Below the pieces are notes generated by a model that saw only the letters and a program-made list of their open reading frames with translations, did no database searches and was not told where the DNA came from. A stretch of 64,000 nucleotides of DNA from Candidatus Saganbacteria bacterium (GTDB lineage: Bacteria > Margulisbacteria > WOR-1 > XYC2-FULL-46-14 > XYC2-FULL-37-10). The position numbers were made by a program, and so were the translations under genes. The stretch lies in the NCBI GenBank assembly GCA_016223245.1, contig JACRPL010000016.1, positions 1,128 through 65,127 on the forward strand, written 5' to 3'. Positions 6,929-61,032 of this stretch are shown here, in pieces. Position 1 is the first letter of the stretch, and each line of letters starts with the position of its first letter.

Positions 6929-8062
6929 TTGCAAATGTTGCCACGCTATTATCAGAATTTAGAGGAATATCTACATCCCAATAAGGTTTTGGTGATATAT
7001 GGTGCAAGGCAAGTTGGCAAAACTACGCTTCTCCAAACTTTTTTCAAGAATACTAAGCTTAAATATAAAATAGACTCTGGTGATAATATTAAGGTTCAGG
7101 AAATATTGGGTTCACAAGATTTTTCAAAAATATTGGATTACGCGTCAGGGTATCAGCTTATAGTATTGGATGAAGCGCAAAGGATCCCGAATATCGGAAT
7201 GGGGCTCAAGATTCTTGTCGATCAAATCCCGGGGATTCTAGTGATCGCTACAGGGTCTTCTTCTTTCGAGCTTTCCGGCCAAATTGGCGAGCCGCTAACC
7301 GGACGGAAAAGAACCCTTACAATGTATCCATTGTCCCAAATAGAGCTGCTCAAGCTATTTAATGCCCATGAATTAAATGAAAAGCTAGGCGAATGGCTCA
7401 TTTTCGGAGGATATCCAGCAGTCATTACTTCAAAAACAAGAGAAGAGAAAATTAGCGTACTTGAGGAATTGGTGAATTCCTATTTGTTGAAAGATATACT
7501 TGAACTCGAGAAAGTTAAAGGAGCCCAGGTGCTAGTTAATCTTCTCAGATTGCTTGCTTTTCAGGTTGGGAACGAGGTTTCTTTGTCCGAACTCGCGAAT
7601 AAATTGAATATTGATTATAAAACCGTGGCTCGGTATATAGACCTTTTTGAAAAAGCTTTTGTCCTATTTGGCTTGTCTGGATTTTCGAGGAATTTAAGGA
7701 AGGAAGTTACAAGGAAGAAGAAATATTATTTTTATGACAATGGCATCCGAAATGCCATCATTTCAAATTTTAATAATCTTGATATGCGCGATGACATAGG
7801 AAAATTGTGGGAGAACTTTTTAGTCTTAGAAAGGCTTAAAACACAGGAATATATGCAGGTACACGCAAATAACTATTTTTGGAGAACTTGGGACGGGAAG
7901 GAAATTGATTGGATCGAAGAGAGAGAAGGGAAACTCTTCGCTTATGAATTTAAATACAAAAAAGATAAAGTTGGCTTGCCTAAAGATTTTATAACCTCAT
8001 ATCCAAATTCGGCATGGGAAATAATAACATCTGATAATTATTTGCATTTTCTCCTGACTTAG
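6929..8062 (+). CDS. AAA-type ATPase of the COG1373 / DUF4143 family (second copy)
   Basis: It has Walker A (GARQVGKTTL) and Walker B (VLDEAQ) motifs. Confidence 0.6.
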   Translation: MQMLPRYYQNLEEYLHPNKVLVIYGARQVGKTTLLQTFFKNTKLKYKIDSGDNIKVQEILGSQDFSKILDYASGYQLIVLDEAQRIPNIGMGLKILVDQIPGILVIATGSSSFELSGQIGEPLTGRKRTLTMYPLSQIELLKLFNAHELNEKLGEWLIFGGYPAVITSKTREEKISVLEELVNSYLLKDILELEKVKGAQVLVNLLRLLAFQVGNEVSLSELANKLNIDYKTVARYIDLFEKAFVLFGLSGFSRNLRKEVTRKKKYYFYDNGIRNAIISNFNNLDMRDDIGKLWENFLVLERLKTQEYMQVHANNYFWRTWDGKEIDWIEEREGKLFAYEFKYKKDKVGLPKDFITSYPNSAWEIITSDNYLHFLLT

Positions 8063-8182: not shown

Positions 8183-9874
8183 ATGAAAAGAGTATTGTAT
8201 ATTTTATTGGTCATATTATTGGCAATTAGCTCAAGCGCTTTTGCAGCTACCCCGCATATTATAACTGTCCAAGGCAGATTGTTGCGATCTGGCGGCATCC
8301 CCGTCAACGGAATTAAAACCGCGACCTTTATGATAATCGAGGAGCCAAATTTGTTATTATGGTTGAGCGATCCAATGCAAGTAACCCTAATAGCGGGTGT
8401 TTTTTCAGTTGATCTCGACTTGGATAAGGTTGATGACGAAAGCTTGAGCTCCCCGAATCTATTAACTTTTGATAAGCCTTGTAAAATAATTACTAATATT
8501 GATGGAACGGTTTTTGAACAAAAGATCGCTGCGGTTCCTTACGCCTTAAACGCGGAGAAACTTAACGGTATGAATATCACGAAATTTGCAACACTGGATG
8601 CGAGCGGCAATATTATCGGCGCGAAGGCGGAAAAGTATGTAAAAAAGACTGGCGATGTAATGAGCGGCGGGCTTATTATATCAAGCGGCGGGGCAGATTT
8701 TGGGCTAGTGGCGAGCGGTGAAATCGGGGGTGTTAAAGGAACATATCTGGACAATAGCGATGCTATTGGGATGCTTGGTTACGGCAAAAAGCTGGGATTT
8801 GCAATTGTTGAGGGGAAAAAAATCAGCAAGGGAACCGAATTTTATGGCGCATACGGTAAATTCACCGATCTCGCGCAAGGAGGTCTTGGCGTCCAATTCC
8901 CCGGGAAAAAATCGTTCGGAGCCTGGGGTGTCGGCGGCGTTGCTGGGGGTTATTTTGAAAGCCAAAGCGGATATGGCTTGATTGCGATCGCAAGCAATGG
9001 GTCCGAAGGCGGGGCTTTGGGCGGCTATAATGTATTTGATACATCTGATACTAAGTTTGGAGTTGCAGGAATAAGCGATTCTGGCAATGGAGTTTATGGC
9101 GATGGCGACGCGGCCTATGGCGGGGAAATAAACGGGATATTTAAGAAAGCCGGTGTTTTTGGAAAAGGCGGGGCTAAGACGAGCGGTGTTCTGGGGTATT
9201 CTGAAGTCGACAACCCAAATCGCGCAGGAGTTGTCGGTATCAATCCTAACGGATACGCGGGGATATTCTCCGGCATTAAAGGCATGAATGTATCAGGGTC
9301 TCTTGAGGTAAAAGGTGATATCCGAGGAATTGATTGGATAAGCTTTGCACCATTTGATAAAAATTGGCCTGCACCTTTCCCGACCGACCTGGCCGACACC
9401 GTGATAGGTTATTCGAGCGGCGGCATGTTTGAAGAAGCTGTTCAGGTTGTTTCTCCAACAGAATCAATGGACCCGTATATTGTCTTTGCAAGCTCCTATC
9501 TTAACACTCCTAAGAGAGGAAAGATATTGATCAAGGCAACAGGGACTGTTCAGACTTCGGATGACGGCAACTCTCCATTTTGGGTTTCGGTCAAGCTTTT
9601 ACAGACAACTTACCAAGGAACGACGAAGAAAGAATTGCCAGGCGATCTTATTACAGTGGCAGGCACAAAAGCCAGCAAGATATTCAAGTATCCGTTCACT
9701 GTACAGGGGATGTTTGATGTTTCATCTGGTTTCCCAACCTTGTTTAACCCTAATAACTACGCCGCGCTTATTAGCAATCAATTTACTTTATCTTGCGCCA
9801 TGAAAACTTACGGCGGAAAGCCTTTAAATATTACGGGAAACATTCAGGCAATTTATATGCCGAATATTAATTAA
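8183..9874 (+). CDS. Glycine-rich fibre-like surface protein (paralog family); likely start MKRVLYILLVILLAISSSAFA
   Basis: It has a signal peptide, TPHIITVQGRL, PYALNAEKLNG...KKTGDVMSGGLII and glycine repeats. The track ORF start at 8138 crosses the poly-C tract and lacks a signal peptide. Confidence 0.55.
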   Translation: MKRVLYILLVILLAISSSAFAATPHIITVQGRLLRSGGIPVNGIKTATFMIIEEPNLLLWLSDPMQVTLIAGVFSVDLDLDKVDDESLSSPNLLTFDKPCKIITNIDGTVFEQKIAAVPYALNAEKLNGMNITKFATLDASGNIIGAKAEKYVKKTGDVMSGGLIISSGGADFGLVASGEIGGVKGTYLDNSDAIGMLGYGKKLGFAIVEGKKISKGTEFYGAYGKFTDLAQGGLGVQFPGKKSFGAWGVGGVAGGYFESQSGYGLIAIASNGSEGGALGGYNVFDTSDTKFGVAGISDSGNGVYGDGDAAYGGEINGIFKKAGVFGKGGAKTSGVLGYSEVDNPNRAGVVGINPNGYAGIFSGIKGMNVSGSLEVKGDIRGIDWISFAPFDKNWPAPFPTDLADTVIGYSSGGMFEEAVQVVSPTESMDPYIVFASSYLNTPKRGKILIKATGTVQTSDDGNSPFWVSVKLLQTTYQGTTKKELPGDLITVAGTKASKIFKYPFTVQGMFDVSSGFPTLFNPNNYAALISNQFTLSCAMKTYGGKPLNITGNIQAIYMPNIN

Positions 9875-9877
9875 ATC

Positions 9878-11452
9878 ATGAAAAAATTATATAAATTAAT
9901 AATTACATTGTTGGTCATTGGCCATTGGTCATTGGTCATTATCGCACCGGCGGCCGCTATTCCCAACAAAATAATTAACATCCAGGGAAAACTGACGGAC
10001 GATCACAATAAGATCGTCAAAAGTGTAAAACAGATCCGTGTCAGCATGGTTGATTCGAACAATCAAAGCATTTGGATTTCGCCTGTTATCACCATAACGG
10101 TAAATAATGCCGGAATATTCAATGCTGAATTTGACCTATCTTCCGCAACAGGCGTTGATTTTAATTCGCCTTACAGCCTTATTATTAATGTTATCGATGA
10201 TGCCGACAAAGTTACGACTCTCAATCCGCAGTCTTTGACCTCTGTTCCTTATGCTTTAAATAGTGACAAATTTAACGGCCTTTCATCTTCGAGTTTTGTC
10301 GTGCTCGATGATTTTGGGGAAATTGCTGGTGAACTTGCGGGCAATGTTAAAAAATCCGGGGATTCAATGTCCGGGAGCCTCAAGATAACAGGCGGTGAAA
10401 GCGATGATTATGGCGTCGAGGCAAGCGGGTAGTCGGGCGCAGTGAAAGGGACATGGATAGGGGATAATAATTTCTTCGGGGTATTAGGCGGCTATAGTTA
10501 CAAATATGGGGACGATGTGTCTTTGCCCGGGGTGTATGGGCAGCATTCAAGTTATACTGGCGCTGCCAGAGGAGGCCTTGGCGTTATAAGAAATATTCTA
10601 TGGTCTTTTGGTGTTTGGGGAAAAGGGCTGACCGCGGGCGGATATTTTTCTAGCGCGAACGGGACAGGTGTCCTTGGAAAATCTACGGGAACCGGCGGAA
10701 TATTTGGCGCTTATAATTCAAATTCGACAACTGACAAGTATTATGGAGTCGCAGGTGTTAGCGTTGCAGGCAACGGGGTGTATGGCGAGATAACTAGCGA
10801 TACGTTTAGCAGCGAGTGGAAAGCAGGGGTTTACGGCAAAGGAGGCGCAAAAACCTCTGGAGTTATGGGATACACAACAACAGATAAAGACAATGCGGCG
10901 GCAATTGTCGGGATCAATCCAAAAGGATACGGAGGGGATTTTACAGGAAAAAACGGCGTAAAAATAAATGGGCCGCTTGAAGTTTCGGGCGGGATACAAG
11001 GCAAGGGGCTTCACTGGGCGGAAAAAGGAATTACCGCATCTAATTTTTTTACCAAGACAAGCATTGGCGGTTATTATTACCATAAAATGATCAAGCATAT
11101 ATATGTGACATTCCCATATTCAGGCTATGCCCTTGTTCAAGCAAGCGGCATATTCTCAAACAATGACGAAAGTTTTTCCCAAATGTCCGCGCAAATAACC
11201 GACAACGAGTATTTGGATCCTGACGGAAAAAACTTTATTATTGATGGATCGGTCGCTGTTGTGGGATTAACAAATCCAACTGGGCAAGGATTCTATCCAT
11301 CGTTTCCATTTGCGTCATCAAGGGTTTTTGGAGTGGAAGGAGGCAAGTCGTATCATTTTCATTTGATCGGATTTCTAAAAACAACGAAAAGCGACGTTAA
11401 ATTTAATTTTGATGGCGCCCTTAATTGCATGTTCTTCTCGAGGAAATACTGA
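9878..11452 (+). pseudogene. Fibre-like surface protein paralog interrupted by an in-frame TAG at 10430..10432
   Basis: The ORFs 9878..10432 and 10442..11452 are in the same frame and the paralog alignment runs straight through the stop (GVEASG*SGAVKGTWIG versus GIESSGKTAGVKG). Confidence 0.5.
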
Positions 11453-11453
11453 T

Positions 11454-13007
11454 ATGAAAAGATTATCTATGAATATAATTATTACATTGTTGGTCATTTA
11501 TCATTGGTCATTTGTCATTTGTGCGCCTGCGCGCGCGGATGTCCCCAAAATAATGAATATCCAAGGCAAATTGACCGATCCGAATTCCAAGGCTGTTTCC
11601 GGGGCCAAAAAATTAAGATGTTCTCTGGTTGACAATAAAGGCGCGGCTGTTTTCAATTCTAAGGTTTATGATATCCCGCTAAATAGCGACGGAGTGTTCA
11701 ATGTGGATATTGACATATCTTCCACTCTCGCAGATTTTAATTCGCCATATACTTTGAATATTATTATTATCAATGAAGACGGGTCGACTTCTATTCTTGA
11801 GCCTAAGGCTCTAACTTCCGCACCATATGTATTAAATGCCGGAATGCTCGGAGGGCTTAAGCCCGCCTCTTTTGCGGCAAAAGATGCGGATGGCAAAATA
11901 GTCGGGTCGGTCGCCGGTTATGTCAAAAAAAGCGGGGATGAAATGAGCGGGGGCTTAAAAGTGAACGCCGGTAAATCTAATTTCGGGATCGAATCAAGCG
12001 GAAAAACGGCAGGGGTCAAAGGTTTATCGGCTTCAAGCGGCGATAGGTGGGGAGCGCTTGGCGGAGAGAATTATGGCGTTTACGGTCAGTCAACGGCTAA
12101 TGCGATAGGCATAATAGGCGTTTATGGCGTTTATGGCGTTTATGGCTCTGGAAAAACGTTTGGAGGGTATTTTCAAAGTTCAACAGGTATTGGCGCTATC
12201 GGGAAAACAACCGGCGCTAATGGCGGAGTGTTTGGCGGATACAACACCGCAGAGGCTAATGATAAATGGTTTGGGGTTGCAGGGGCAAGCGATTCGGGAA
12301 ACGGGATATATGGCGAAGTAGCCAGTAATACTTTGGACAGCGATTGGAAGGCCGGAGTTTACGGCAAGGGGAGCAATACGACGAGCGGAGTTTTTGGATA
12401 TACTGATTCAACGAGTGGCGCAGGCGTTAAGGGCGTAGATAATAGCGGATATGGGGCGATATTTTCGGGGGAAAAGGGCGTAAAAGTCGACGGACCTGTA
12501 AATATTTCAGGGACAATTACCGCAAACAATTTGCCGGGAATTGCTTACGATAACTATTTTAATTTTTCTAATACCAATCTAAAGTCGAGCACGGCAGTAA
12601 TCATTAAATCTGTTGAAATAGATGTGCCTGCTCCCGGGTATATATTGGTCCAATCAAGCGGAACCTTGTATTCATACGCCACTACCGATGTTTTAATTGG
12701 CTTAGGAATACTTAATATTGATAATTTCTCTTCTCAAGTCTTTTATGATGTATACTTTGGGACAAATCCATTGGTTTCGTATGTTTTTCTAGCGGATAAT
12801 TCGAAATTTAATTTTTCATGCCAGTTTGAAGCAAAAAAATCGATGGGCCCCAATATATATTTCCCATTTTCTACAAGCAATGTATTTGAAACGAAAACTG
12901 CCGGCAAACAAAAGTTTTATTTGACGGGATATCTTAAACATTCTGCTTCTTCCGGCCGATTAGATGTTTCAGGCTCGATACAAGCTATCTATTTCCCAAG
13001 CAAGTAG
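11454..13007 (+). CDS. Glycine-rich fibre-like surface protein (paralog family, subfamily A)
   Basis: It begins MKRLSMNIIITLLVIYHWSFVICAPARA, then PKIMNIQGKL, PYVLNAGMLGG...KKSGDEMSGGLKV and repeats such as GVYGVYGVYG. Confidence 0.6.
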   Translation: MKRLSMNIIITLLVIYHWSFVICAPARADVPKIMNIQGKLTDPNSKAVSGAKKLRCSLVDNKGAAVFNSKVYDIPLNSDGVFNVDIDISSTLADFNSPYTLNIIIINEDGSTSILEPKALTSAPYVLNAGMLGGLKPASFAAKDADGKIVGSVAGYVKKSGDEMSGGLKVNAGKSNFGIESSGKTAGVKGLSASSGDRWGALGGENYGVYGQSTANAIGIIGVYGVYGVYGSGKTFGGYFQSSTGIGAIGKTTGANGGVFGGYNTAEANDKWFGVAGASDSGNGIYGEVASNTLDSDWKAGVYGKGSNTTSGVFGYTDSTSGAGVKGVDNSGYGAIFSGEKGVKVDGPVNISGTITANNLPGIAYDNYFNFSNTNLKSSTAVIIKSVEIDVPAPGYILVQSSGTLYSYATTDVLIGLGILNIDNFSSQVFYDVYFGTNPLVSYVFLADNSKFNFSCQFEAKKSMGPNIYFPFSTSNVFETKTAGKQKFYLTGYLKHSASSGRLDVSGSIQAIYFPSK

Positions 13008-13024
13008 TTTAATGTTCTACGATT

Positions 13025-13288
13025 TTACCGATAAATATCTTTCCGATGCCCAATTCGAAGTATTATTATAGTTTTGCTTTTTTGCTCAACGTCGTACAGC
13101 ACCCTATAATCCCCGATACGGATACGGAATTGTGCTACATCGTCAGCAATAAGGCGTTTCACTCCATCAGGAAAAGGGATTGATTCCAGTTTCATAATTG
13201 CCGCATCAATACGTTTAACCTCAAAATGATCAATTTTTTTAAGATCTTTCTTGGTGCGAGGAGTGATAAGTATCTGATAAGCAGACAT
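13025..13288 (-). CDS. RelE/ParE-family type II toxin
   Basis: It is 87 aa with a RelE/ParE-like sequence (…RIRIGDYRVLYDVEQKSKTIIILRIGHRKDIY). Confidence 0.65.
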   Translation of the reverse strand: MSAYQILITPRTKKDLKKIDHFEVKRIDAAIMKLESIPFPDGVKRLIADDVAQFRIRIGDYRVLYDVEQKSKTIIILRIGHRKDIYR

Positions 13289-13504
13289 TTAGTTCCGTCC
13301 GACTAAAAGACGATATTTACGATAGGGAACGGCTTTTCCTCTATTGTGATCTTTTCTGCCTTGACGAATAGATTTTTTTAGCTGTTTGGAAGTTGTCTCA
13401 AGGATTATATCCTCCACCAGCGACCAGTCCTTCAATATCTCTTCTTGGAGTCTTTCTATTCTGCCCAATTTCTTTAAAATAAGATTTTTTGACGCTTCCG
13501 TCAT
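13289..13504 (-). CDS. Putative antitoxin partner of RelE (about 71 aa, start MTEASKNLILKKLGRIE)
   Basis: It sits immediately upstream of the toxin with the stop/start adjacent. The longer track ORF 13289..13738 is extended by antisense ilvD-fragment sequence. Confidence 0.4.
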   Translation of the reverse strand: MTEASKNLILKKLGRIERLQEEILKDWSLVEDIILETTSKQLKKSIRQGRKDHNRGKAVPYRKYRLLVGRN

Positions 13505-13620
13505 TTTTTCACCCAAAATAATTTTAGCATATATTTCTGATCGAGTCAAAAAGGGATTGGAATTGAGTCCATCCGTCCCTATCTTTTTTATGTTATAATT
13601 TATAGACTTAGGAGCTGATT

Positions 13621-13890
13621 TTATGCGAAGCGATAATATTAAAAAAATGGGGCCGCCCCGCGCCTTAGTCCACCGGCCTTCCTGCCATTTGTGATTGGAT
13701 CGCCATGGGACACAAGGGGATGCATTATTCTCTGCCATCGAGAGAACTCATAGCAGACACAGTTGAAACAGTAGCCGAAGCCCATCAATTAGATGGTCTT
13801 ATTTTGCTAACTGCTTGCGACAAGATAACACCCGGGATGCTTATGGCGGCGGCACGGTTGAATATCCCTTCTATGTTAATCATTGTTGTA
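13621..13890 (+). pseudogene. Degenerate duplicated 5' fragment of ilvD ([11 protein letters not shown]... fused to ...[66 protein letters not shown])
   Basis: It is about 90% identical at the DNA level to 15129..15183 and 15337..15540, and the atgttataatt promoter motif upstream is also duplicated. Confidence 0.8.
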
Positions 13891-14233
13891 GCCAGGCTTG
13901 ATAAAGTTATGGGAGAGTTGGAGAAATTCCGCGAAGATAGGGTTCTCGCAAAGAAAAAAGACGACGACCAGGACGAGAAATTGGCGGCGCATGAAAAGAG
14001 ATTGCTTCGCGTTGAGTCAAAGGTTGGAGTTTAGAACCGGATACCCAGGGAATTTGGATAATAGGAACAATAATTTTTTCCAAATAACCTAATCTCCCAA
14101 TTCCCAGTCGCAAATTTCCCAATTACCAAATTTCCTCGACAACGCGATTGCCCAAAAACCGCATCATTATGGTATAATTCACAAAAGAAGAGAAAAAAGG
14201 TATGACGCTATTAGTTGAGGCCAGGGCTTCAGC

Positions 14234-14587
14234 GTGATTTGTTCAGCCGCGCTCGGGGTAAAGGAAAAAAAGATGGACGAAGAAATAAAAAATATAACAA
14301 AGCGGATCGCCGAAAAATTTAATCCCAGAAAACTCATTCTCTTTGGCTCGTCTGCTTTAGGTGCGAGAAAAGAAAATAGCGATGTGGATTTATGCGTAGT
14401 TAAAGACTATATCCAAGATCGGACAATGGATTCAGTCGCGATCAGGAAAATTATTGGGAAAAATTTGATACCTTTTGATATTGTAGTTTTAGGCAGAGAT
14501 GAATATGACAGCCGGAAAAATATTTGGGGAACTTTGCAGTATGAGATAGATAAAAAGGGAATAGTTCTTTATGAGCGCAGAGATTGA
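14234..14587 (+). CDS. Nucleotidyltransferase-domain protein (MNT-type antitoxin/toxin component)
   Basis: It has the LILFGSSALGARKENSDVDLCVV motif (GS...D.D). Confidence 0.6.
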   Translation: MICSAALGVKEKKMDEEIKNITKRIAEKFNPRKLILFGSSALGARKENSDVDLCVVKDYIQDRTMDSVAIRKIIGKNLIPFDIVVLGRDEYDSRKNIWGTLQYEIDKKGIVLYERRD

Positions 14588-14957
14588 AAAAGAGAAAGCC
14601 GTAATAATAGGCGAATGGGAGCGGAGAGCGCTTGATGACCTTGTATCGGCGGAAATCATATTGAAGGAGAGCGATAAATATGAGATTTCCGTCTATCATT
14701 CGCATCAGGCAGTTGAAAAATTTTTGAAAGCAAACCTGTTAAAACTGGGGCAAACATTTAAATTCACCCACGATATTGATGTTTTGTTCGAACAAGTTTT
14801 TGGCGATGATAAAGATAAGGCGGCAGCCGAAAAAATCGCCCATCTTAACGCTTTATATCCGTCTTTAAGATATCCCTTTGGGGAAAAGATAACCAAGGAC
14901 CAGGCGATTAATTGCCTGGCGATAGCAAAAGAAGCGATTAGCCGGTTGCGAAAATAG
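14571..14957 (+). CDS. HEPN-domain protein (partner of the MNT at 14234)
   Basis: It overlaps the MNT gene and carries HSHQAVEKFLKANL, matching the HEPN R/H..EK.LKA signature. Confidence 0.55.
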   Translation: MSAEIEKEKAVIIGEWERRALDDLVSAEIILKESDKYEISVYHSHQAVEKFLKANLLKLGQTFKFTHDIDVLFEQVFGDDKDKAAAEKIAHLNALYPSLRYPFGEKITKDQAINCLAIAKEAISRLRK

Positions 14958-15128
14958 TCGTGGCGGTGGAAGGCTATGGGAAATAAGGGGGTTAGACATA
15001 GAAGATAGAAGCTTGTTTCAAGAATCCACAGTCCAGCATCCAATTTCATAATTAGCTTCCGAAACTATGGCCAAGATAACCTCAAACGATTATTTCATGT
15101 TATAATTGCTTCCTCAGGGGGTATCATC

Positions 15129-16772
15129 ATGCGAAGCGATAATATTAAAAAAATGGGGCCGACCCGCGCCTTAGTCCACGCGACAGGCGTTTCTGATAAA
15201 GAACTTTCAAAACCATTTATCGGCCTTGCTTCCTCATTTACCGACTTGGTGCCGGGGCATGTTGATATGCGATCGCTTGAAAGAGTTATAGAAAAAGGGA
15301 TACATGCCGGCGGCGGAGTTTCATTCACATTCGGCCTTCCTGCCATTTGTGATGGGATCGCCATGGGACACAAGGGGATGCATTATTCTCTGCCATCGAG
15401 AGAACTCATAGCAGACACTGTTGAAACAGTCGCAGAAGCCCACCAATTGGATGGTTTAATATTGCTCACCGCTTGCGACAAGATAACACCCGGAATGCTA
15501 ATGGCGGCCGCGCGATTAAATATCCCTTCTATTATAGTTACAGCAGGCCCAATGCTCGCAGGTTGTTATAAAGGCGAGAGGCTTGATCTTGTCCACGACG
15601 CTTTCGAGGCAGAAGCGGCTTACAAGCAGAAAAAAATATCAAAAAAAGATTTCGATAGTTTAATTTTAAGCGCGTGTCCCGGAGCCGGTTCGTGTTCCGG
15701 TTTATTTACCGCAAATACTATGGCCTGTGCGACGGAAGCGATGGGAATGTCCTTGCCATTCTGCGGGACATCCCTTGCCGTATCTTCCAAGAAAAAAATG
15801 ATCGCCTATGAAAGCGGCAAAAGGATAGTTGAGTTGGTATCCGAAAATCTTACTCCAAGAAAGATCATGAACATGAACTCATTCATGAATGCGATACGCA
15901 TCGATATGGCGCTTGGCGGATCGACGAATGCTGTATTGCATCTGACAGCGATCGCGCAGGAAGCGGGGATCGATCTGACGCTTGATATATTTGACAAGAT
16001 AAGCCGTGAAACCCCGCATATTACAAATATCCGCCCCGGCGGAAACCATTTTATGGAGGATTTTGAGAATGCCGGCGGCATTCCCGCCGCTTTTTCCGTC
16101 CTTCAAAAACTCTTGAAAGATAATCCAACAGTTTCAGGGATGTCGGTCAAACAGATCGCAAAATCTGGAGTTGTTTATGATCGCGAAGTCATAAAAACAT
16201 TGGACAATCCGTATCATAAGCAAGGAAGCCTCGCCGTTCTTAAAGGAAACATCGCTCCTGAAGGGGCAGTTGTAAAACAAACCGCGGTTTCACAGAAAAT
16301 GATGAAATTTTCGGGAGAAGCGATTGTTTTTGATTCCGAAGATGCGGCGCAAAAAGCGATCGTTTCCGGTAAAGTCAAAAAAGGGCATGTTGTTGTCATA
16401 AGATATGAAGGGCCAAAAGGCGGACCCGGGATGCGGGAGATGCTTTATCCAACATCGGCTATCGCCGGTATGGGGCTTTCTGATTCAGTCGCATTAATTA
16501 CTGATGGGCGATTTTCCGGTGGAACAAGAGGTCCATGCATTGGCCACGTCGCGCCGGAAGCCGCTTTAGGCGGACCGATCGCGGCTGTAAAAAATGGGGA
16601 CGTTATTGATATAGATATTCCGAACAGGAGAATAGAGTTGCGGGTAACGAGCAGCGAGTTGAAAAAACGATTGGCGGCTGTAAAACCGCATGAGCCGAAG
16701 ATCAAAGCCGGGTGGCTTGCGAGATATCAGAAGCTTGTAACTTCGGCAAGTGTGGGCGCTATACTTAAGTAG
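15129..16772 (+). CDS. ilvD: Dihydroxy-acid dehydratase
   Basis: It contains [19 protein letters not shown] and [11 protein letters not shown], and is the length of a full IlvD/Edd enzyme. Confidence 0.9.
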
Positions 16773-16800
16773 GATAGCAGGAGGTCACTCTGAAGGGAAA

Positions 16801-17127
16801 ATGAAAACAGATAAAATTGATGAAAGTTTAATTAAAGATGCCGCGGCTAAGATAGCGGCAAAGCTTAATCCTAAAAAAATTATTCTTTTTGGGTCGCATG
16901 CATGGGGGAAAGCTTCGGGAAGCAGCGATTTAGACCTTTTTATAATAGCACCTTCGGTTTTACGTCGAGATGAAAGGGGGGTTGAAGTTTCCAAACTTTT
17001 TCCAGATAGGTTGTTCCCACTCGACGCGCTTGTATATACCCCGGAAGAAGTTGAGCAAAGTTTAAGGCGAAAAAATCCGTTTGTGAAAGAAATTTTGGAA
17101 AAAGGGAAAATTCTCTATGGCGCCTGA
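16801..17127 (+). CDS. Nucleotidyltransferase-domain protein (MNT-type)
   Basis: It has the ILFGSHAWGKASGSSDLDLFIIAP motif. Confidence 0.6.
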   Translation: MKTDKIDESLIKDAAAKIAAKLNPKKIILFGSHAWGKASGSSDLDLFIIAPSVLRRDERGVEVSKLFPDRLFPLDALVYTPEEVEQSLRRKNPFVKEILEKGKILYGA

Positions 17128-17530
17128 TTCTTTAAATTTTGAGGATTGGTTTTTAAAAGCGGGAAATGAGATAAAAGCCGCTGATGGGATTTTCTTCTAT
17201 TATGAAGATCCGCCGACGGACATGATCTGTTATCATGCCCAACAGGCGGCGGAAAAAACGCTTAAAGCTTTTTTGATCTATAAGTCCGAACTGGCCCCCA
17301 AAACGCATGATTTGGTTGAACTTGTAAATTTGTGTATTAAGCAGGACAAGGATTTTTTAAGCCTGAAAGAGCTTATTGAAGTTTTAAATAAGTATTATAT
17401 TGAATCAAAATATCCACCGGACAATCCTATTATTTATTCTAAAGACGAAGCAAAGAGCGCTATAGCGCTAGCAAAAAACATTTTGAAATTTTCAAAAAGC
17501 AAGGTCTCAAAAGGGGCGGTGTTAAGATGA
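17117..17530 (+). CDS. HEPN-domain protein
   Basis: It has YHAQQAAEKTLKAFL and overlaps the upstream MNT gene. Confidence 0.55.
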   Translation: MAPDSLNFEDWFLKAGNEIKAADGIFFYYEDPPTDMICYHAQQAAEKTLKAFLIYKSELAPKTHDLVELVNLCIKQDKDFLSLKELIEVLNKYYIESKYPPDNPIIYSKDEAKSAIALAKNILKFSKSKVSKGAVLR

Positions 17531-17769
17531 GCCTCCCAAAATATTTCAAAGGAATATTGTGGTTCGCAGATTTCAATAAACTCTCCCTAAAAGAGGACAG
17601 AAATATTATTTTGTTCCAAGCGCTTGAGAAGGGTAGAATGGAGCACCTCAAATATCTGAAAAACAAGCTTGGCGCAAAAGCGATCGTTGATTTTGCAAGA
17701 AAAAATTCGAATAAATTCAGCAGGAAAAGCGTATTAACTTTCGCGGAAACGGTTTTTGGTGGCAAATAG
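17527..17769 (+). CDS. Small hypothetical protein, probable partner (AbiEi-like antitoxin role) of the downstream AbiEii-type gene
   Basis: It overlaps the start of the 17756 gene and is 80 aa. Confidence 0.3.
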   Translation: MSLPKYFKGILWFADFNKLSLKEDRNIILFQALEKGRMEHLKYLKNKLGAKAIVDFARKNSNKFSRKSVLTFAETVFGGK

Positions 17770-18415
17770 GATGCAGCCGCTTCACTTTGAGGTCCTTGAT
17801 GAGAAAAGAATTAAAGCGTTCAAGGATATTTCCGCTATATTGGACGAAAAATATTATCTTGCCGGTGGCACAGCGCTGGCTCTTCAGCTCGGGCATAGAA
17901 AATCCTATGATTTTGATGTTTTCGGGAACAAAGATATAACTTTTGCCGTTAAAAAAAAGATTATAAAAGGGCTTAGCGGCTATAAGATCAAAACGCTTGT
18001 AGATTCCTCCGATGAATTAAGCCTTATCCTTAATGAAGAGATCAAACTTACAGTCCTGAATTATTATTGGGATCCGATAAAGTCGCTTGTAAAGCTTAAA
18101 GGCTATCTTCCTCTTCTTTCAATATTGGATATCGCGGCAACAAAAGCATACGCACTTGGAAGAAGAGGCAATTACAGAGACTATTTCGACCTTTATATTA
18201 TCATAAAAAATGAGTATGCGACTTTAAGAGCCATAATTTCTTGCTGTAAAAAAAAGTATGGAGAACTCTTCAGCGAAAAGATGCTTCTTGAGCAATTGAC
18301 CTATATTGGCGATCTGGACGAAAAAGAAAAACTCATGTTTTCTTCGGAGAAATTTGTTCCGTCGAGGAAAATAATAGAGTTCTTTAAAAATAAGATCAAG
18401 GGGAACTCGCATTAA
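17756..18415 (+). CDS. Nucleotidyltransferase AbiEii/AbiGii toxin family (DUF1814-like)
   Basis: Near its N-terminus it has YYLAGGTALALQLGHRKSYDFDVF, matching the GGTAL...R.S.D.D signature. Confidence 0.55.
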   Translation: MVANRMQPLHFEVLDEKRIKAFKDISAILDEKYYLAGGTALALQLGHRKSYDFDVFGNKDITFAVKKKIIKGLSGYKIKTLVDSSDELSLILNEEIKLTVLNYYWDPIKSLVKLKGYLPLLSILDIAATKAYALGRRGNYRDYFDLYIIIKNEYATLRAIISCCKKKYGELFSEKMLLEQLTYIGDLDEKEKLMFSSEKFVPSRKIIEFFKNKIKGNSH

Positions 18416-18579
18416 AGAAGCGTGCTATACTTAGGAAGGCGTAATGCGTAACGCGCGATGCGGGATGCGAGGGGGAATTATATGAAAGACGCAGCTGTTA
18501 ATTGGTTTGCAAAGGCAGATCTGACAAAATATGCGCAAGCAGGAGATATTGTTGATCGATTTGTAAAATAAATGTTAAA

Positions 18580-18774
18580 ATGAAAATAACAAAAAGATCG
18601 AAAGAATATTTTATAGATAATATTTCGCGGACAAACCAGGTTGTTTTTACAGTGCTCATAGTCGGCACATTTGTAACAGGGTTCAATATTATTGTTTTTA
18701 TTATCGGCAGTATTATTTTTCTTTTACTTTTGCTTGCAGGAACTTTTTTAACATCAAAAACGGAGGATCAATAA
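18580..18774 (+). CDS. Small membrane protein, paralog of 1084..1272
   Basis: It begins MKITKRSKEYFIDNISRTNQVVFTVLIVG followed by a second TM segment. Confidence 0.4.
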   Translation: MKITKRSKEYFIDNISRTNQVVFTVLIVGTFVTGFNIIVFIIGSIIFLLLLLAGTFLTSKTEDQ

Positions 18775-18775
18775 T

Positions 18776-18883
18776 ATGAACCAATATTTAAGCTTGGTGC
18801 CGATGGTGATATTTTTAGTTGTAGTTTTGATCTTTGTGGCTATTGTTGCGTTTAGCGGCAAGCCGCCGAAGGGGATACTATAG
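18776..18883 (+). CDS. Small hydrophobic peptide (35 aa) ending ...FSGKPPKGIL
   Basis: It follows an RBS (ggagga) and is a paralog of the 947 peptide. Confidence 0.35.
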   Translation: MNQYLSLVPMVIFLVVVLIFVAIVAFSGKPPKGIL

Positions 18884-18927
18884 GGGCTATCGGCGCAAGC
18901 AGGAGATCAGGCAAAAAATCTGATAAA

Positions 18928-19269
18928 GTGAAGGCAGGGCATAATATGGCAAAAGAATATGAATTAGTTGTAAATAATTTTTTGGATAGGATAAGCGCCT
19001 TAAGGCCAAGCATCAGCAGCATGTATCTTTTCGGTTCGCATGCAAGAGGGACCGCTCGACCGGATTCTGATTATGATATTCTCATTGTTGCGCCTAAAAA
19101 AAATAAGGAATTAAAAAGCAAGCTGTATGACGCTGTAATGGATATTGAGTTGGAAAAGGGCGCGGACATTTCGTTGAAAGTGTTAAAACAGGACCAATTT
19201 GACAGGCTTCGGGAATTTAACACGCCATTCATTAAAAATGTTTTAAAAGAAGGGATTAAAATTGCATAA
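18928..19269 (+). CDS. Nucleotidyltransferase-domain protein (solitary MNT)
   Basis: It has the LFGSHARGTARPDSDYDILIVAP motif. Confidence 0.55.
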   Translation: MKAGHNMAKEYELVVNNFLDRISALRPSISSMYLFGSHARGTARPDSDYDILIVAPKKNKELKSKLYDAVMDIELEKGADISLKVLKQDQFDRLREFNTPFIKNVLKEGIKIA

Positions 19270-39237: not shown

Positions 39238-39300
39238 GAGACTAGTTAGGAACCTGCGAGTGAACCCTGCCTGCCGGCAGGCACGGCTCGCGGTTCCTAA
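39238..39300. repeat. Second copy of the about 70-bp palindromic element (right arm truncated)
   Basis: gagactagttaggaacctgcgagtgaaccctgcctgccggcaggcacggctcgcggttcctaa is nearly identical to 3439..3500. Confidence 0.85.
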
Positions 39301-39366
39301 AATCTACGAGGAAACCGCGACGCTTGTCCCGATTCCCACATCGGGATTTAGTCGCTGGTTTCCGAG

Positions 39367-41548: not shown

Positions 41549-42723
41549 TCCCAATCGACCTTAAAACATCCGACTTCGATTATGATCTTCCCCAAAGTTT
41601 GATCGCTCAAACACCGACCAATAAACGCGACGAATCGCGATTGATGGTCCTCAACCGAAAAGAAAAAACAATCGAACACAGGCTATTCAAAGATATTATT
41701 GACTATCTAATGCCCGAGGATCTTCTGGTATTAAACGACACAAAAGTAATGCCCGCGAATCTTATTGGGAAGAAGGCTGATGGGACGGCGAGGATTGAAG
41801 TTCTTCTTGTTCAGCGATGGAAACCTGCGACTAAATCCCGATGTGGGAATCGGGACAAGCGTCGCGGTTTCCAAAAATGGACATGTCTTGTGAAACCCGG
41901 CAAACGATTAAAAATAGGATCGAAAATAGTTTTCTCGGGAAAATTAACAGGTACGATCCGTGAGAAATTAGAATCCGGAGAACAAGTTATCGAGTTTATA
42001 GGCGAACTTCAGGGATTTATGCGTGAGCATGGGGAGATACCATTGCCGCCTTATATAAAAGTAGCTAACTCACCCCCTCAATCCCCCTCTCTTATTAAGA
42101 GAGGGGGAAGCCCGAAGGGCGGGGGTGAGTTGATCGCTAGATATCAGACAGTCTACGCCGAGAAAGAAGGCGCCTCGGCGGCGCCAACGGCGGGGCTTCA
42201 CTTTACCTCCGAACTTTTGGATCAAATAAAAGCAAAAGGCGTCAACATCGCGAAAATAACCCTTCACACTGGGCTTGGGACCTTTAAACCAGTTTATGCC
42301 GAATATATTAAAGACCATAAGATGTTCGAGGAAGAATACGAGGTGTCTGCGGAAACAATACGCGCGATATCCCGATGTAACATCGGGATGAAACGCGTGA
42401 TCGCGGTCGGAACAACGAGTGTTAGGACATTGGAAACCATTTACCCACACTTACATCTCCCTCTTATCAAGGGGGAGAACGAGAGGGGGTCAACCGACAT
42501 CTTTATCTATCCAGGATTTAAATTTCAAATAGTTGATGCCATGATTACGAATTTTCACATTCCAAGATCAACTTTGCTGATGCTTGTTTCCGCCTTCGCA
42601 CAGAATGCTTCGGCGGACAAGTCCGCCTTCGCAGGGAGAGATTTTATTTTTCGTGCTTATAAAGAAGCGATAGATAAGGAATATAGATTTTTCAGCTTTG
42701 GCGATGCGATGCTTATTATTTAA
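41545..42723 (+). CDS. queA: S-adenosylmethionine:tRNA ribosyltransferase-isomerase, with two in-frame palindromic-element insertions
   Basis: It begins DFDYDLPQSLIAQTP and has the QueA core. It is longer than usual because of the inserts SPPQSPSLIKRGGSPKGGGE and HLPLIKGENERGSTD. Confidence 0.8.
   Translation: MIPIDLKTSDFDYDLPQSLIAQTPTNKRDESRLMVLNRKEKTIEHRLFKDIIDYLMPEDLLVLNDTKVMPANLIGKKADGTARIEVLLVQRWKPATKSRCGNRDKRRGFQKWTCLVKPGKRLKIGSKIVFSGKLTGTIREKLESGEQVIEFIGELQGFMREHGEIPLPPYIKVANSPPQSPSLIKRGGSPKGGGELIARYQTVYAEKEGASAAPTAGLHFTSELLDQIKAKGVNIAKITLHTGLGTFKPVYAEYIKDHKMFEEEYEVSAETIRAISRCNIGMKRVIAVGTTSVRTLETIYPHLHLPLIKGENERGSTDIFIYPGFKFQIVDAMITNFHIPRSTLLMLVSAFAQNASADKSAFAGRDFIFRAYKEAIDKEYRFFSFGDAMLII
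42068..42130. repeat. GC-rich nested palindromic element inserted in-frame in queA
   Basis: actcaccccc-tcaat-ccccctctcttattaagagaggggg-aagcccgaagggc-gggggtgagt is present. Confidence 0.75.
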
Positions 42724-45789: not shown

Positions 45790-46504
45790 AGACAGCTATT
45801 TGCCCATATTTAATGACTTTTCCCTGATAAATAATGATATATGGATAAGCGCCGTTGCCGACTTGCGATCCAAAATCGGTATTTCCGTTCCATGAGACCT
45901 CGTTGTATCCCTGTCTGCCGCCGAGCCCAACACCCGCCGAGTCCTGTGCTCCTGCAGTTCCGGTCAGGCGCTTTACCATATTTCCGTTAAGATCATAGAT
46001 ATTTATTGATGTGTCGCCGTCGTCGGTCAAAGTATATGTGATCTTTGTTGTTTCGCCGTGAAGCGGCTTAAAAGGGTTTGGATAATTCATTGCATTGCCG
46101 GTGACAGTTACAGTTCCTAGGACCGAAACCGAAAATGTCGACGTGGAAGTTTCGGCCCCAAGGTTATTTGCGCTAACTTGGATTATATGGGAGCCTTTAT
46201 CGAGCGCCGAAGTTACAGTATACGTTGCCTCATAGGATGTTTGTCCTTCGGTTGTGGGAGATATTGTGAAAGTTTTAATGCCGCCATCGATCGTAAGAGA
46301 GATCGTCATTTTATTAATGCCTGTCGCGTCTGAAATTTTTGCGGAAATTATTGGGAGCCGTCTTACCGTTGTGCCGGCGGAAAGAGTTACTCCGTCCGTA
46401 TAAATTGTTATAGTTGGAGCGGCGACCGCTTGCGCGGTAATGACCAATGACCAATAACCAATGACCAATAATGAAAATATTATAATAGCAAATATCTTTT
46501 TCAT
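45782..46504 (-). CDS. Secreted protein with LLVIGYWSLVI signal peptide and FlgD-Ig-like C-terminal domain
   Basis: A (TTGGTCA)n heptamer repeat encodes the signal peptide, and the C-terminus reads ...YNEVSWNGNTDFGSQVGNGAYPYIIIY. Confidence 0.5.
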   Translation of the reverse strand: MKKIFAIIIFSLLVIGYWSLVITAQAVAAPTITIYTDGVTLSAGTTVRRLPIISAKISDATGINKMTISLTIDGGIKTFTISPTTEGQTSYEATYTVTSALDKGSHIIQVSANNLGAETSTSTFSVSVLGTVTVTGNAMNYPNPFKPLHGETTKITYTLTDDGDTSINIYDLNGNMVKRLTGTAGAQDSAGVGLGGRQGYNEVSWNGNTDFGSQVGNGAYPYIIIYQGKVIKYGQIAVYD

Positions 46505-46570: not shown

Positions 46571-48450
<1,880 letters not shown>

Positions 48451-48600
48451 TACAATTAACTCACAGTTAGCATGAAAAACACAAATCAATTCCGCCTGCT
48501 CATAATTTTTGCCATTCTAGGCGCTTCAATTGATTCCATGGCTGGAGTTATTGCGAGAGGGAATCGGAACGAATTGCCAACAAGGCTATTTTGAAGCCAT

Positions 48601-49266
48601 TTAAGGCTTAATGATCCTATCTTTTAGCGCTTTTGCTTCTGATTCATAATAGCTTTGCCAATCCGACTCGTTCAATTTTTCAAGCAATTTTGGATAATCT
48701 TTTAATTCTTTTGCAAGCAATAACTGCGCTCCCAGTTTCAATAGGTCTATATGCCAATCAAACTTAATCCTTGCTTTTTTTAGGAGATCGTTGATTTGGA
48801 AATTGTATTTTTTATTTATCATAAATAGATCCATAAAATCCCTGGAACGGGGGTTCTGATAAATAGTAAAGATTTTATTGACCGCGATATCCAAAACACT
48901 GTCAATCCTTATCCCGCCGATAGTTTTTGGCTTTTCAATTGACGGGAACGGAAAATATGTGAATTCCGATTTCAGCATCTTATTATTGCCGAATCTCAAG
49001 ACGATAATATTGCGATTATAGCTTGTATTTAAGTCGAACTTTTCAAACCCCAGGCTGGTTTTAATGGATTTTAGGAAAACAATAATGGAATTAATGTCGA
49101 TCTCATTTTCAGAGAAAAAATCCAGATCTTCGGAAAAGCGGTAGGGAATATAGTATTCAGCCAAAGCTGTGCCGCCGGAAAGATAAAAATCGTTGACTAT
49201 ATTTTTGTTTTTTGACAACAGGCCAAGAAAAACCTTTTGCCTGCCGCTTAAAATAGATTTTTTCAT
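48601..49266 (-). CDS. Nucleotidyltransferase AbiEii/AbiGii toxin family (second copy)
   Basis: It has FYLSGGTALAEYYIPYRFSEDLDFF. Confidence 0.55.
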   Translation of the reverse strand: MKKSILSGRQKVFLGLLSKNKNIVNDFYLSGGTALAEYYIPYRFSEDLDFFSENEIDINSIIVFLKSIKTSLGFEKFDLNTSYNRNIIVLRFGNNKMLKSEFTYFPFPSIEKPKTIGGIRIDSVLDIAVNKIFTIYQNPRSRDFMDLFMINKKYNFQINDLLKKARIKFDWHIDLLKLGAQLLLAKELKDYPKLLEKLNESDWQSYYESEAKALKDRIIKP

Positions 49267-49460
49267 GAAGAGTGCAAAAGAAATCCTAAATATTTCTTCT
49301 TTAAAGGATCGATGTGAAGTTTTCCTATGTTTGCTTCAAGCTCTTTTTGATCAAGTTTTTCGCCTGAAAGGCCGTAATTTATAAGCTGTTCTAAACGCCA
49401 AATGGCATATTTTTCGGGGTATTTTTTGAGTTTTTTAACATCAACTGACCAATTGTACAT
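49263..49460 (-). CDS. Small partner protein of the AbiEii-type gene (putative antitoxin)
   Basis: It is 65 aa and overlaps the AbiEii gene by 4 nt. Confidence 0.3.
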   Translation of the reverse strand: MYNWSVDVKKLKKYPEKYAIWRLEQLINYGLSGEKLDQKELEANIGKLHIDPLKKKYLGFLLHSS

Positions 49461-49551
49461 AATATTATTATATCACATTTAGTGAGCATTTTGGCGCAAA
49501 TTTCAGTTGGACAAAAAAAATATTCTTTGATACAATTAACTCACAGTTAGC

Positions 49552-50883
49552 ATGAAAAACACAAATCAATTCCGTCTGCTCATAATTTTTGCCATTCTAG
49601 GCGCTTCCATTTTTGTACTTTCACAAATGCCGATCACGCTTGGCCTCGATCTCCAGGGCGGGACCCGTTTGGTTTTTGTGGGAGAGGAAACCGCAAAAGT
49701 AAAAGTTTCCGATGATTCAATGGCAGGCGTTGTCGCGGTAATAAGGAACAGGATCGACGCGCTTGGGGTAGCAGAGCCTGTCATCCAAAGAAAAGGCCGC
49801 GACCAAGTTATTGTCGAACTTCCCGGGATCAAAGATCCCGATCGTGCGATCAAACTTATCGGAGATACCGCGCTTTTGGAATTTGTCGAAGCCGAATGGG
49901 CGCCGGGATCCGAATCCACTCTTACTCCGGAAAAAGTCAAAGAATTTTATGGCGCCGATGCAAGGCTCGACAAAGTATCCGATATCAAAGATGGCCAAGT
50001 TGTTTCATCCAGATTAATTATCCTCAAGAAAACAGCATTATCCGGCGGCGACCTTAAAGCCGCTTATCCGCAAGTCGACGAATACGGCAACCCCTCGGTC
50101 GGGTTTGAATTGAATTCCGAAGGCGCGAAAGCTTTCGCCGACCTTACGACGAGGCACATAGAAAAGCCTATCGCAATAATCTTGGATAAAAAAATTATTT
50201 CCGCCCCGAACGTTAAAACCCCTATCACAGAAGGTAAAGGCATTATAACCGGCAACTTTTCTGCGACCGAGGTGCGCGATATGATAATTAAGCTTAAGGC
50301 CGGCTCTCTTCCAATTCCTGTAAAGCTTATTGAAACGAGGATAGTTGGCCCGACCTTAGGTAAAGATTCGGTAGATAAAAGCAAAATCGCGGGCGCAATA
50401 GGTTTTATCTTTATATTTTTCTTTATGATCCTTTATTATCGCCTGCCAGGGCTTATCGCAAATATCGCGCTATTCCTTTACATATTCTTGACCCTAGCCG
50501 TTCTTTCTATCCTGCATTCAACTTTAACTCTTCCAGGAATTGCAGGGTTCTTGCTTTCGGTGGGTATGGCTGTTGATGCCAATGTTATCATTTTTGAGCG
50601 CCTAAAGGAAGAATTGAGAATCGGGAAAACCATTAAAGCGGCTATCGACACCGCCTTCGAAAGGGCATGGGCCGCGATATTAGATGCGAATGTGACAACC
50701 ATTATTGCCGCAGTGACCCTGTTTTTTGTCGGAACAGGGACTATCAAAGGTTTTGCGGTAACGCTTACGGCAGGCATATTGGTTTCCATGTTCACAGCGA
50801 TCACTCTTACAAAAATGATGTTAAATATGATGGCGGACAGCAAGATCATCCCGAATTCGGATTCGAAGCTGGTGTACAAATGA
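49552..50883 (+). CDS. secD: Protein translocase subunit SecD
   Basis: It has the SecD periplasmic and TM regions (...LGLDLQGG...; AGAIGFIFIFFFMILYYRLPGLIA). Confidence 0.85.
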   Translation: MKNTNQFRLLIIFAILGASIFVLSQMPITLGLDLQGGTRLVFVGEETAKVKVSDDSMAGVVAVIRNRIDALGVAEPVIQRKGRDQVIVELPGIKDPDRAIKLIGDTALLEFVEAEWAPGSESTLTPEKVKEFYGADARLDKVSDIKDGQVVSSRLIILKKTALSGGDLKAAYPQVDEYGNPSVGFELNSEGAKAFADLTTRHIEKPIAIILDKKIISAPNVKTPITEGKGIITGNFSATEVRDMIIKLKAGSLPIPVKLIETRIVGPTLGKDSVDKSKIAGAIGFIFIFFFMILYYRLPGLIANIALFLYIFLTLAVLSILHSTLTLPGIAGFLLSVGMAVDANVIIFERLKEELRIGKTIKAAIDTAFERAWAAILDANVTTIIAAVTLFFVGTGTIKGFAVTLTAGILVSMFTAITLTKMMLNMMADSKIIPNSDSKLVYK

Positions 50884-60682: not shown

Positions 60683-61032
60683 ATAACGCGCTGCGCTCGT
60701 AATGACCAATGACAAATTTCCAATGACCAACATTGTATCGCTTCGCGATAATTATAATAAATACATTGTTGGGATTTGGTCATTAATAAGTATATCAGAA
60801 TTTCTTTTACAATTCACCCTGCGCCTCGATTGCTCATGCAATGGTCAGGGCTTTTTCGAGTCTGGTTTCCTCGTTGGTAACTGGGCCTCAAGCAGAATAT
60901 ATCTTCGCCAAATTGATTATCTTATCATATCCTTCGACATTCAGGTTGACACATGAAGCAACAACATTTTTTAAGGTTTTTACGTGATATTCGCTTGACA
61001 AAATCGCGGACTCGAGGGCGGCTTTATAAATT

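Follow-up and report, generated by a model that had tools for sequence, protein, structure and literature searches.

Chimeric gene-start repeats around toxin-antitoxin cassettes at secD and ilvD of a Candidatus Saganbacteria genome suggest homology-anchored insertion

How small defence cassettes reach isolated positions beside core genes without a mobility gene is debated. We analysed a stretch of 64 kb (hereafter the window) on contig JACRPL010000016.1 of a metagenome-assembled genome of Candidatus Saganbacteria, an uncultivated bacterium from groundwater, in which two housekeeping genes, secD and ilvD, keep the scar of such an arrival. At secD, a two-gene toxin-antitoxin pair with an AbiEii-type toxin stands between two copies of the start of the gene, and the locus raises the question of how the cassette came to be framed by a duplicated piece of its neighbour. 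The scar combines a duplication of resident DNA with a foreign piece of the same gene attached to the cassette, and this points to a homology-guided, host-mediated insertion. Our preferred explanation, to which we assign a probability of about one half, is a homology-anchored insertion with long target duplication via host recombination with DNA of a diverged lineage.

The direct repeat at secD comprises 105 nt with 98% identity and 2 mismatches (blastn E = 9e-46), and its two copies start 1080 nt apart. The first-pass annotation had reported direct repeats with two mismatches at this site, which we confirm. Its first copy (48427-48531) agrees with ours, whereas its second copy (49501-49604) was shifted by ~6-7 nt from the actual position (49507-49611). 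The parts said to be covered, namely the end of the C39-like gene, the intergenic region and the start of secD, were also named correctly, except that the last amounts to 20 and not ~25 codons. The upstream (R1) and downstream (R2) copies thus comprise the final 7 codons and the stop of the C39-like gene (48427-48450 in R1), a 21-nt spacer, and secD codons 1-20. The two mismatches, 48495/49575 (C/T) and 48528/49608 (A/C), are both synonymous and located at third codon positions, and the longest exact run is 68 nt. Both copies begin 1 nt ahead of the -35 hexamer of a promoter-like site, which is found in identical form in R2 (49508-49536). By consensus scan, the number of promoter-like sites in the region is not above that in shuffled sequences. 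Judged by its layout, the duplicated unit may be described as a putative promoter with leader and start.

As the first-pass annotation had also seen, the upstream copy creates a short open reading frame (ORF), which encodes the 40-aa product MKNTNQFRLLIIFAILGASIDSMAGVIARGNRNELPTRLF. Behind secD codon 20, the frame continues in a 41-nt tail that aligns with the intact gene from the first base past R1 and in frame, which implies an internal deletion of 102 nt. The local alignment score of the tail is 16, compared with 9.5 ± 1.3 for 2000 shuffles, 2 of which attain 16. Within its first 24 nt, 5 bases differ over 4 codons. Three of these four codon changes are synonymous (third position), and the remaining one is an Ile/Val codon with two changed bases. 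Based on this alignment, the ORF appears to be a decayed 5' fragment of secD, running from -45 to +60 and, after the deletion, from +163 to ~+206.

The same architecture recurs at ilvD, where a 5' leftover with an internal deletion is followed by a cassette and the intact gene. That a housekeeping 5' end is duplicated around a cassette at both genes had been proposed before and holds true. In the ilvD leftover, the blocks 13623-13673 and 13674-13874 correspond to 15129-15179 (98%) and 15332-15532 (92%), respectively, with a longest exact run of 33 nt. Leftover and intact copy show 18 differences over 252 nt. Sixteen of them fall into ilvD nt 291-404, and 15 of these are silent third-position changes (synonymous divergence dS ~0.9, non-synonymous divergence dN ~0.012); the probability that at least 15 of 16 changes hit the third position by chance is 7.7e-7. 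This distal leftover allele contains ...CATCAATTAGATGGTCTTATTTTGCTAAC.... For ilvD nt 1-290, dS is 0, and there are just 2 differences, both non-synonymous, including a Gly to Trp change in the leftover. In secD, 2 differences per 105 nt in the proximal part compare with 5 per 24 nt in the distal part. At both loci, proximal and distal divergence differ significantly by Fisher test (p = 1e-4 and 0.0025).

Because the differences are nearly all synonymous, leftover and intact copy can be regarded as two functional alleles under selection. Pseudogene drift as the origin of the differences is ruled out by the bias in codon position. A proximal block without synonymous divergence indicates a recent, true duplication of resident DNA, and the sharp boundary between proximal and distal parts makes each leftover a chimera of a resident duplicate and a foreign piece of the same gene that adjoins the cassette. 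By their codon pattern, the distal parts appear to stem from a lineage long separated from the resident one, with the gene then under purifying selection. Hence, the repeats are best described as two alleles and would not represent a plain in-situ target-site duplication.

The insert at secD measures 975 nt, and its only ORFs are those of the AbiEii-family protein and its 65-aa partner. Its GC content is 34%, compared with 46% for secD, secF, and tgt and 40% for the C39-like gene, the product of which matches an NCBI Saganbacteria protein at 100%. The toxin gene is full length, as its homologues span 218-223 aa; the closest of them share 60-66% identity and are mostly annotated as Patescibacteria. 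The first-pass annotation had taken the two genes as an AbiEii-type pair. For the toxin, this is supported by both Pfam and PADLOC. For the partner, the term does not apply, and no model in Pfam, PADLOC, or NCBIfam matches it. A partner of 63-65 aa in an identical two-gene layout is nevertheless present upstream of the toxin at every homologous locus inspected, and the 65-aa protein shares 56-69% identity with these partners from Patescibacteria-type loci. It thus seems to represent a conserved family that lacks a database model and is not recognizable as AbiEi. The box TGATATAAT lies ~6 nt before the ATG of the partner gene, as seen directly in the sequence; the consensus scan did not flag it. 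Its position so near the ATG suggests a leaderless transcript, which we regard as a prediction.

In distant Saganbacteria, the region upstream of secD is organized as C39-tRNA-Arg-secD (L002) or tgt-secD (L008), with other genes elsewhere, and no toxin-antitoxin pair is found upstream of secD in the distant relatives inspected. A scan of genomes for SecD returned relatives with at most 75% identity, mostly with other upstream genes. The low GC content together with the cassette-free upstream regions in related Saganbacteria indicates that an accessory toxin-antitoxin pair has been inserted. We therefore describe the secD cassette as a foreign toxin-antitoxin pair, so called by its predicted function, that appears to have been inserted upstream of the essential gene secD. 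The features of both loci are listed in Table 1.

Table 1 Features of the secD and ilvD loci, in window coordinates
Feature	Position	Strand	Evidence or remark
ilvD 5' leftover: ilvD nt 1-51 and nt 204-404, 152-nt deletion	13623..13874	+	
1254-nt insert with MNT (14234-14587) and HEPN (14571-14957)	13875..15128	+	
Intact ilvD	15129..16772	+	
C39-like peptidase gene, intact; final 24 nt within R1	47677..48450	+	Pfam PF13529 E = 5e-11
Repeat copy 1 (R1): C39 3' end, 21-nt spacer, secD' codons 1-20	48427..48531	+	
Promoter-like TGGACA-17-TACAAT with upstream TG	48428..48456	+	Consensus match only
40-aa leftover ORF MKNTNQFRLLIIFAILGASIDSMAGVIARGNRNELPTRLF: secD codons 1-20, joined in frame to diverged secD sequence from codon 55 on	48472..48594	+	
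Distal tail of the secD leftover	48532..48572	+	Homologous to 49714-49757
Short AbiEii-family nucleotidyltransferase, 221 aa	48601..49266	-	Pfam PF08843 E = 3.9e-15; PADLOC AbiEii E = 4e-15
65-aa partner gene, 4-nt overlap with AbiEii	49263..49460	-	
Cassette-side upstream region, right end of inserted DNA	49461..49506	-	Holds TGATATAAT
Repeat copy 2 (R2), runs on into intact secD	49507..49611	+	
Intact secD	49552..50883	+	Pfam SecD domains; 75% identity to Saganbacteria SecD

From the similar structure of the two loci, the first-pass annotation had proposed one recurrent integration mechanism. In the sense of a mechanism encoded by the cassette or tied to a shared core site, this proposal is not supported. 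The inserts at secD (975 nt) and ilvD (1254 nt) have no sequence in common, and a comparison of their junctions yielded no common motif, just trivial A/T-rich 8-9-mers. Neither insert has terminal inverted repeats, the best end-to-end inverted match scoring 7. No recombinase, integrase, or transposase is encoded between the secD repeats, the toxin and antitoxin ORFs being all that they enclose, and the secD insertion site lacks a tRNA. Homologous AbiEii pairs in other genomes are packed tightly between housekeeping genes, and none of five independent loci has long flanking repeats: four (L081, L087, L089, L094) gave no convincing repeat, and L103 leaves no room for one. In L089, a direct repeat of 25 nt with 80% identity (3742-3766/4677-4701) directly flanks the homologous pair. 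It is the sole hint of flanking repeats among the homologous cassettes and is probably a chance match. At the same thresholds of length, identity, and spacing, 3 repeat pairs were obtained in 0.97 Mb of other loci (a scan with slightly different blastn settings, its pairs taken as listed and uninspected), compared with 2 pairs that flank toxin-antitoxin genes in the 64-kb window. The recurring factor would therefore be sought in the way this genome takes up DNA, with host-level recombination with DNA of diverged lineages as the route, and not in a single element.

Several classes of mobile DNA were considered and do not fit. A DNA transposon or insertion sequence (IS) would require a transposase ORF and inverted ends, both of which are missing, and a target duplication of <~15 bp, compared with 105 nt here. 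An integrase-mediated island is not compatible with the missing recombinase between the repeats, the missing tRNA, and the lack of a motif in common with the ilvD event. For an integron gene cassette, no inverted-repeat structure was seen at the insert ends, although no dedicated attC model was run. Finally, a tandem duplication of the unit "cassette plus gene start" was rejected, since it would leave a second cassette copy, and none is present upstream of either leftover.

For the insertion with long target duplication that we prefer, the following order of steps can be inferred. The incoming DNA would have belonged to a diverged lineage, with a piece of the donor secD beside the cassette. 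This foreign piece of secD (or ilvD) would pair with the resident gene, presumably with the help of RecA, and the other end would join upstream, that is, at the promoter edge for secD and at the start codon for ilvD. The resident stretch between the joints (for secD, -45 to at least +60) would be copied to both flanks of the insert. The intermediate may have been a circular or gapped molecule in a Campbell-type single crossover, or a linear "ends-in" equivalent bridging sister chromosomes, for which the product would be the same (PMC3784515). With its promoter and complete secD, the downstream copy would then be the working gene, and the upstream copy would be a chimeric leftover, cut short, from which 102 nt were lost afterwards. 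Later decay is the simplest account of the internal deletions, which would be secondary at both loci; the ilvD locus with its MNT/HEPN cassette may have originated by the same route. If the fragment had been foreign throughout, a plain single crossover would predict divergence over the whole repeat; it was rejected, as the proximal block has no synonymous differences, and a gapped or ends-in version accords better with the data. The viable models agree in one respect, namely in host recombination with DNA of a diverged lineage and without an element-encoded enzyme.

Two alternatives keep host recombination but distribute the alleles differently. In an imprecise allelic replacement by homology-facilitated illegitimate recombination, the leftover would be the old resident allele and the intact 5' end would be that of a donor with the cassette upstream of its secD; the homologous joint would lie in or downstream of secD and the illegitimate joint at ~+206. 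Such an event is economical, since one homologous and one illegitimate joint suffice and neither a circular nor a permuted donor is required, and divergence confined to synonymous sites suits two alleles. Moreover, toxin/immunity arrays have been explained in this way (PMC5361080), and a recent study argues that homologous recombination at the core genes on either side spreads small toxin-antitoxin islets (PMC13617665). It gives no reason, however, why the proximal 105 nt (secD) or 290 nt (ilvD) are synonymously identical next to a distal dS of at least 0.9. A mosaic structure would be required of donor and resident alike, with a breakpoint within the short duplicated stretch at secD as well as at ilvD, and the donor cassette would have to sit within the last 8 codons of the donor's own C39 gene because R2 contains those 24 nt. 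We consider this replacement unlikely. The combination of identical proximal and diverged distal blocks is accounted for by an in-situ long target duplication at a break, in which the cassette was captured between staggered or resected ends and both copies were identical at first, followed by import of a foreign allele into the intact gene. If this import came from a diverged lineage that was free of the cassette, its left end would lie a few hundred nt into the gene, with homology stopping at the insert, and the edge of the recombination tract would produce the mosaic at both loci. The proposal is also compatible with the open mechanism discussed for restriction-modification insertions (PMC2853133). 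Yet each locus would need two events, the imported alleles would have to stem from a lineage at dS ~0.9, and the attachment of the diverged block to the cassette would be a coincidence, which makes it quite improbable.

Two further explanations question the duplication itself or bring back an element. The contig is metagenome-assembled, and with wrong phasing the true chromosome could read C39-R-secD, the cassette and one repeat being a circle of 1080 bp or part of another strain. A graph with k = 31 cannot phase two in-edges and two out-edges per repeat, and the Logan assembly yielded neighbouring genes but neither the AbiEii protein nor its partner. The contigs L090, L091, and L092 of this independent k = 31 assembly (run SRR12113407) agree with the window at 99.9-100% in their aligned parts. 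L091 ends at 13652 and L090 at 15158, each exactly 30 nt into the ilvD repeats, and L092 starts at 49578, 30 nt before the variant at 49608. Such contig ends are expected if the reads contain each repeat in both of its versions, and we conclude that they do; the phase is not given by them. Apart from this, the exact runs of 68 nt (secD) and 33 nt (ilvD) are shorter than ordinary reads, so that an assembler could phase them, the internal deletions of the leftovers with their unique junctions must exist in reads, and the same detailed structure is not expected to arise twice by error. An artefact is therefore very unlikely. L090 (window 14096-15158) begins 221 nt past the point where the ilvD leftover ends; its start at 14096 may reflect a branch of the graph, due to a second left context or a variant at ~14095 in the sample, or a gap in coverage. 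Least credible of all, in our opinion, is the remnant of a site-specific integrative element that targeted the 5' end of secD, carried a replacement 5' end, and later lost its integrase and all other parts by deletion. Such elements do often duplicate the end of their target gene, and the repeat starts exactly at the promoter edge. Nevertheless, the insert is merely 975 nt long with no integrase or other ORF between the repeats, no core motif is common to the two events, and the similarity runs into the gene as a mosaic instead of an identical core with diverged arms.

Some points weigh against the homology-anchored insertion as well. The distal sample at secD amounts to merely 24-41 nt, and the switch from resident to foreign sequence coincides there with the 102-nt deletion, so that the joint may be illegitimate. 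The explanation has to assume an intermediate of the gapped or ends-in type, gene conversion at a later time, or a donor fragment that was itself chimeric, and the origin of the first permuted molecule (gene fragment followed by cassette) is left without explanation. Direction and number of events are deduced from a single genome, and the phasing of the repeats is that of the deposited assembly. The collections searched yielded neither a close relative nor an empty site, and no donor locus or circular form either. The empty-site form would join C39-R straight to TTTGTACTTTCAC, and an excised circle would join 49506-R to GATTCCATGG. Exact look-ups of SecD, AbiEii, and the predicted partial leftover ORF at the protein level gave no match. 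Cluster look-ups among 15 billion proteins returned every tested protein as a singleton at 90% identity and thus no close strain. Degenerate patterns of the secD start and of the diverged block of ilvD gave no match in two scans of metagenomes, and searches of phage, plasmid, and viral contigs for the toxin revealed no relevant carrier. With a single genome and no population data, we regard the case as an instructive example rather than a discovery.

A more far-reaching idea is that the cassettes are recombinase-free mobile units that carry a fragment of a housekeeping gene as a homology arm. We consider this unlikely. If it were true, host RecA would insert such cassettes beside the corresponding gene across species-level divergence and would thereby duplicate promoter and start. 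Recombination between the repeats could then free the cassettes again as small circles. For restriction-modification systems, a "virus-like life cycle" was formerly proposed. The homology-arm idea would be a parallel to it, here with sequence evidence for an arm that travels with the cassette.

Further observations were made around ilvD and elsewhere in the window. The ilvD gene is located apart from other ilv genes, within a toxin-antitoxin island (13025-19269). Besides the MNT/HEPN pair at 14234-14957, this island contains a ParE toxin with an unannotated upstream ORF as possible antitoxin (13025-13525), a second MNT/HEPN pair (16750-17530), a second short AbiEii with an 80-aa partner (17527-18415; weak DUF6922 match), and an orphan MNT (18928-19269). 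At another site, the final 45 codons and the stop of a gene for a 561-aa surface protein (5172-5306) are repeated at 6672-6806 with 77% identity at the nucleotide and 80% at the amino acid level; 22 of the 31 differences are at third positions. The second copy is situated between two ATPase genes, preceded by one of the AAA_14/DUF4143 type (5376-6608) and followed by a paralogue of it (6929-8062). It may be an older counterpart, at a 3' end, of the scars at secD and ilvD, or a paralogue remnant.

Palindromic repeats occur in frame within housekeeping genes and are reminiscent of Rickettsia palindromic elements. The sequence CCCTCTCCCAGTGGGAG(A/G)GGG is present in tgt (47117-47137) and in the C39-like gene (47733-47753), with 0 chance matches expected; in tgt, the palindromic element adds ~12 residues that are missing from the Tgt of a relative. 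An element of 54 nt is found in an intergenic region (39310-39363) and, inverted and with 98% identity, in the coding region of queA (41819-41872), which has a second palindrome at 42082-42108. An internally palindromic repeat of 63 nt, GAGACTAGTTAGGAACCTGCGAGTGAACCCTGCCTGCCGGCAGGCA..., is present with 98% identity at two distant intergenic sites (3439-3501 and 39238-39300), the latter copy directly adjoining the 54-nt element. In addition, several paralogous genes for secreted or surface proteins have a nucleotide block in common at their start, where the signal peptide is encoded, TTGGTCATTGG..., with 78-89% identity (1428-1527, 9850-9949, 11429-11528, 46422-46504, and 60689-60737).

Several known systems bear comparison with the secD and ilvD loci. 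In AbiE, a type IV toxin-antitoxin and abortive infection system, the AbiEi antitoxin is a winged-helix transcriptional regulator of ~200-300 aa that is encoded upstream of the toxin. The secD cassette resembles AbiE in its AbiEii-family (DUF1814) nucleotidyltransferase, its overlapping two-gene operon, and the upstream position of the partner. It differs in that an AbiEi antitoxin was not found, the partner having 65 aa and no AbiEi match, and in that the toxin belongs to a short subfamily (~220 aa) common in Patescibacteria; its function is predicted.

In homology-facilitated illegitimate recombination, one joint is homologous and the other forms at a microhomology of 3-12 nt, as seen when donor and recipient are compared. 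The process was reportedly described by de Vries and Wackernagel and by Prudhomme et al., both in 2002. Here, too, a homologous anchor and a non-homologous joint would trap DNA beside a conserved gene and leave orphan fragments. The classic outcome, however, is a deletion of recipient DNA, whereas recipient DNA is duplicated at secD and ilvD. A foreign homologous segment adjoins the insert.

A restriction-modification insertion with long target duplication is said to have been reported by Nobusato et al. in 2000. Such insertions have direct repeats of 30-420 bp of unique host sequence and no mobility genes; they are often lower in GC, occur mostly in naturally competent species, and their mechanism is unresolved (PMC2853133). 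The loci studied here are similar in combining a small addictive pair without mobility genes with long host repeats (105 to ~290 bp), in the lower GC of the insert, and in repeats that overlap the ends of neighbouring genes. They differ in the toxin-antitoxin cargo, in the uncultivated Saganbacterium as host, and in the target, which is the promoter and 5' coding end of a housekeeping gene. A chimeric upstream copy with a foreign allele, as observed here, is not mentioned for restriction-modification insertions in the passages of PMC2853133 considered here. With regard to the features used by Furuta et al. (2010), the repeats are longer than 30 bp (105 nt at secD; 51 and 201 nt at ilvD), and the inserts are smaller than 20 kb and hold an addictive pair but no mobility genes. 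For the empty site, which Furuta et al. (2010) look for in a genome of the same species, only distant relatives were compared; these have a single secD start and no cassette upstream.

When E. coli was screened for illegitimate integration, duplications of 109-950 bp of the target gene were present in 56 of 60 integrants (PMC3240628). These duplications, in lacZ, arose by a single crossover of a circular molecule that carried a gene fragment (PMC3240628). The arrangement of a truncated upstream copy, inserted DNA, and a complete downstream copy is that of a Campbell-type insertion-duplication, and the size of our duplications is in the same range. Unlike the screen, which used an engineered plasmid, our case calls for a circular or gapped intermediate by inference, and the mosaic is not reproduced by a simple crossover. 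In transformation-induced merodiploidy, linear donor ends pair in permuted order across sister chromatids and give rise to a tandem duplication (PMC3784515). The likeness lies in a duplication by host recombination alone. The scale differs, with 100-900 kb between IS copies in that system and ~0.1-0.3 kb around a 1-kb insert here.

The two loci would thus extend long target duplication from restriction-modification genes in cultured, mostly competent bacteria to toxin-antitoxin genes in an uncultivated Saganbacterium, and codon-position analysis of such scars could help to separate in-situ duplication from inter-lineage recombination elsewhere. In comparison with the systems above, the new aspects are the toxin-antitoxin cargo, the host lineage, the target consisting of promoter plus start, and the chimeric leftover that links a foreign segment of homology to the cassette.

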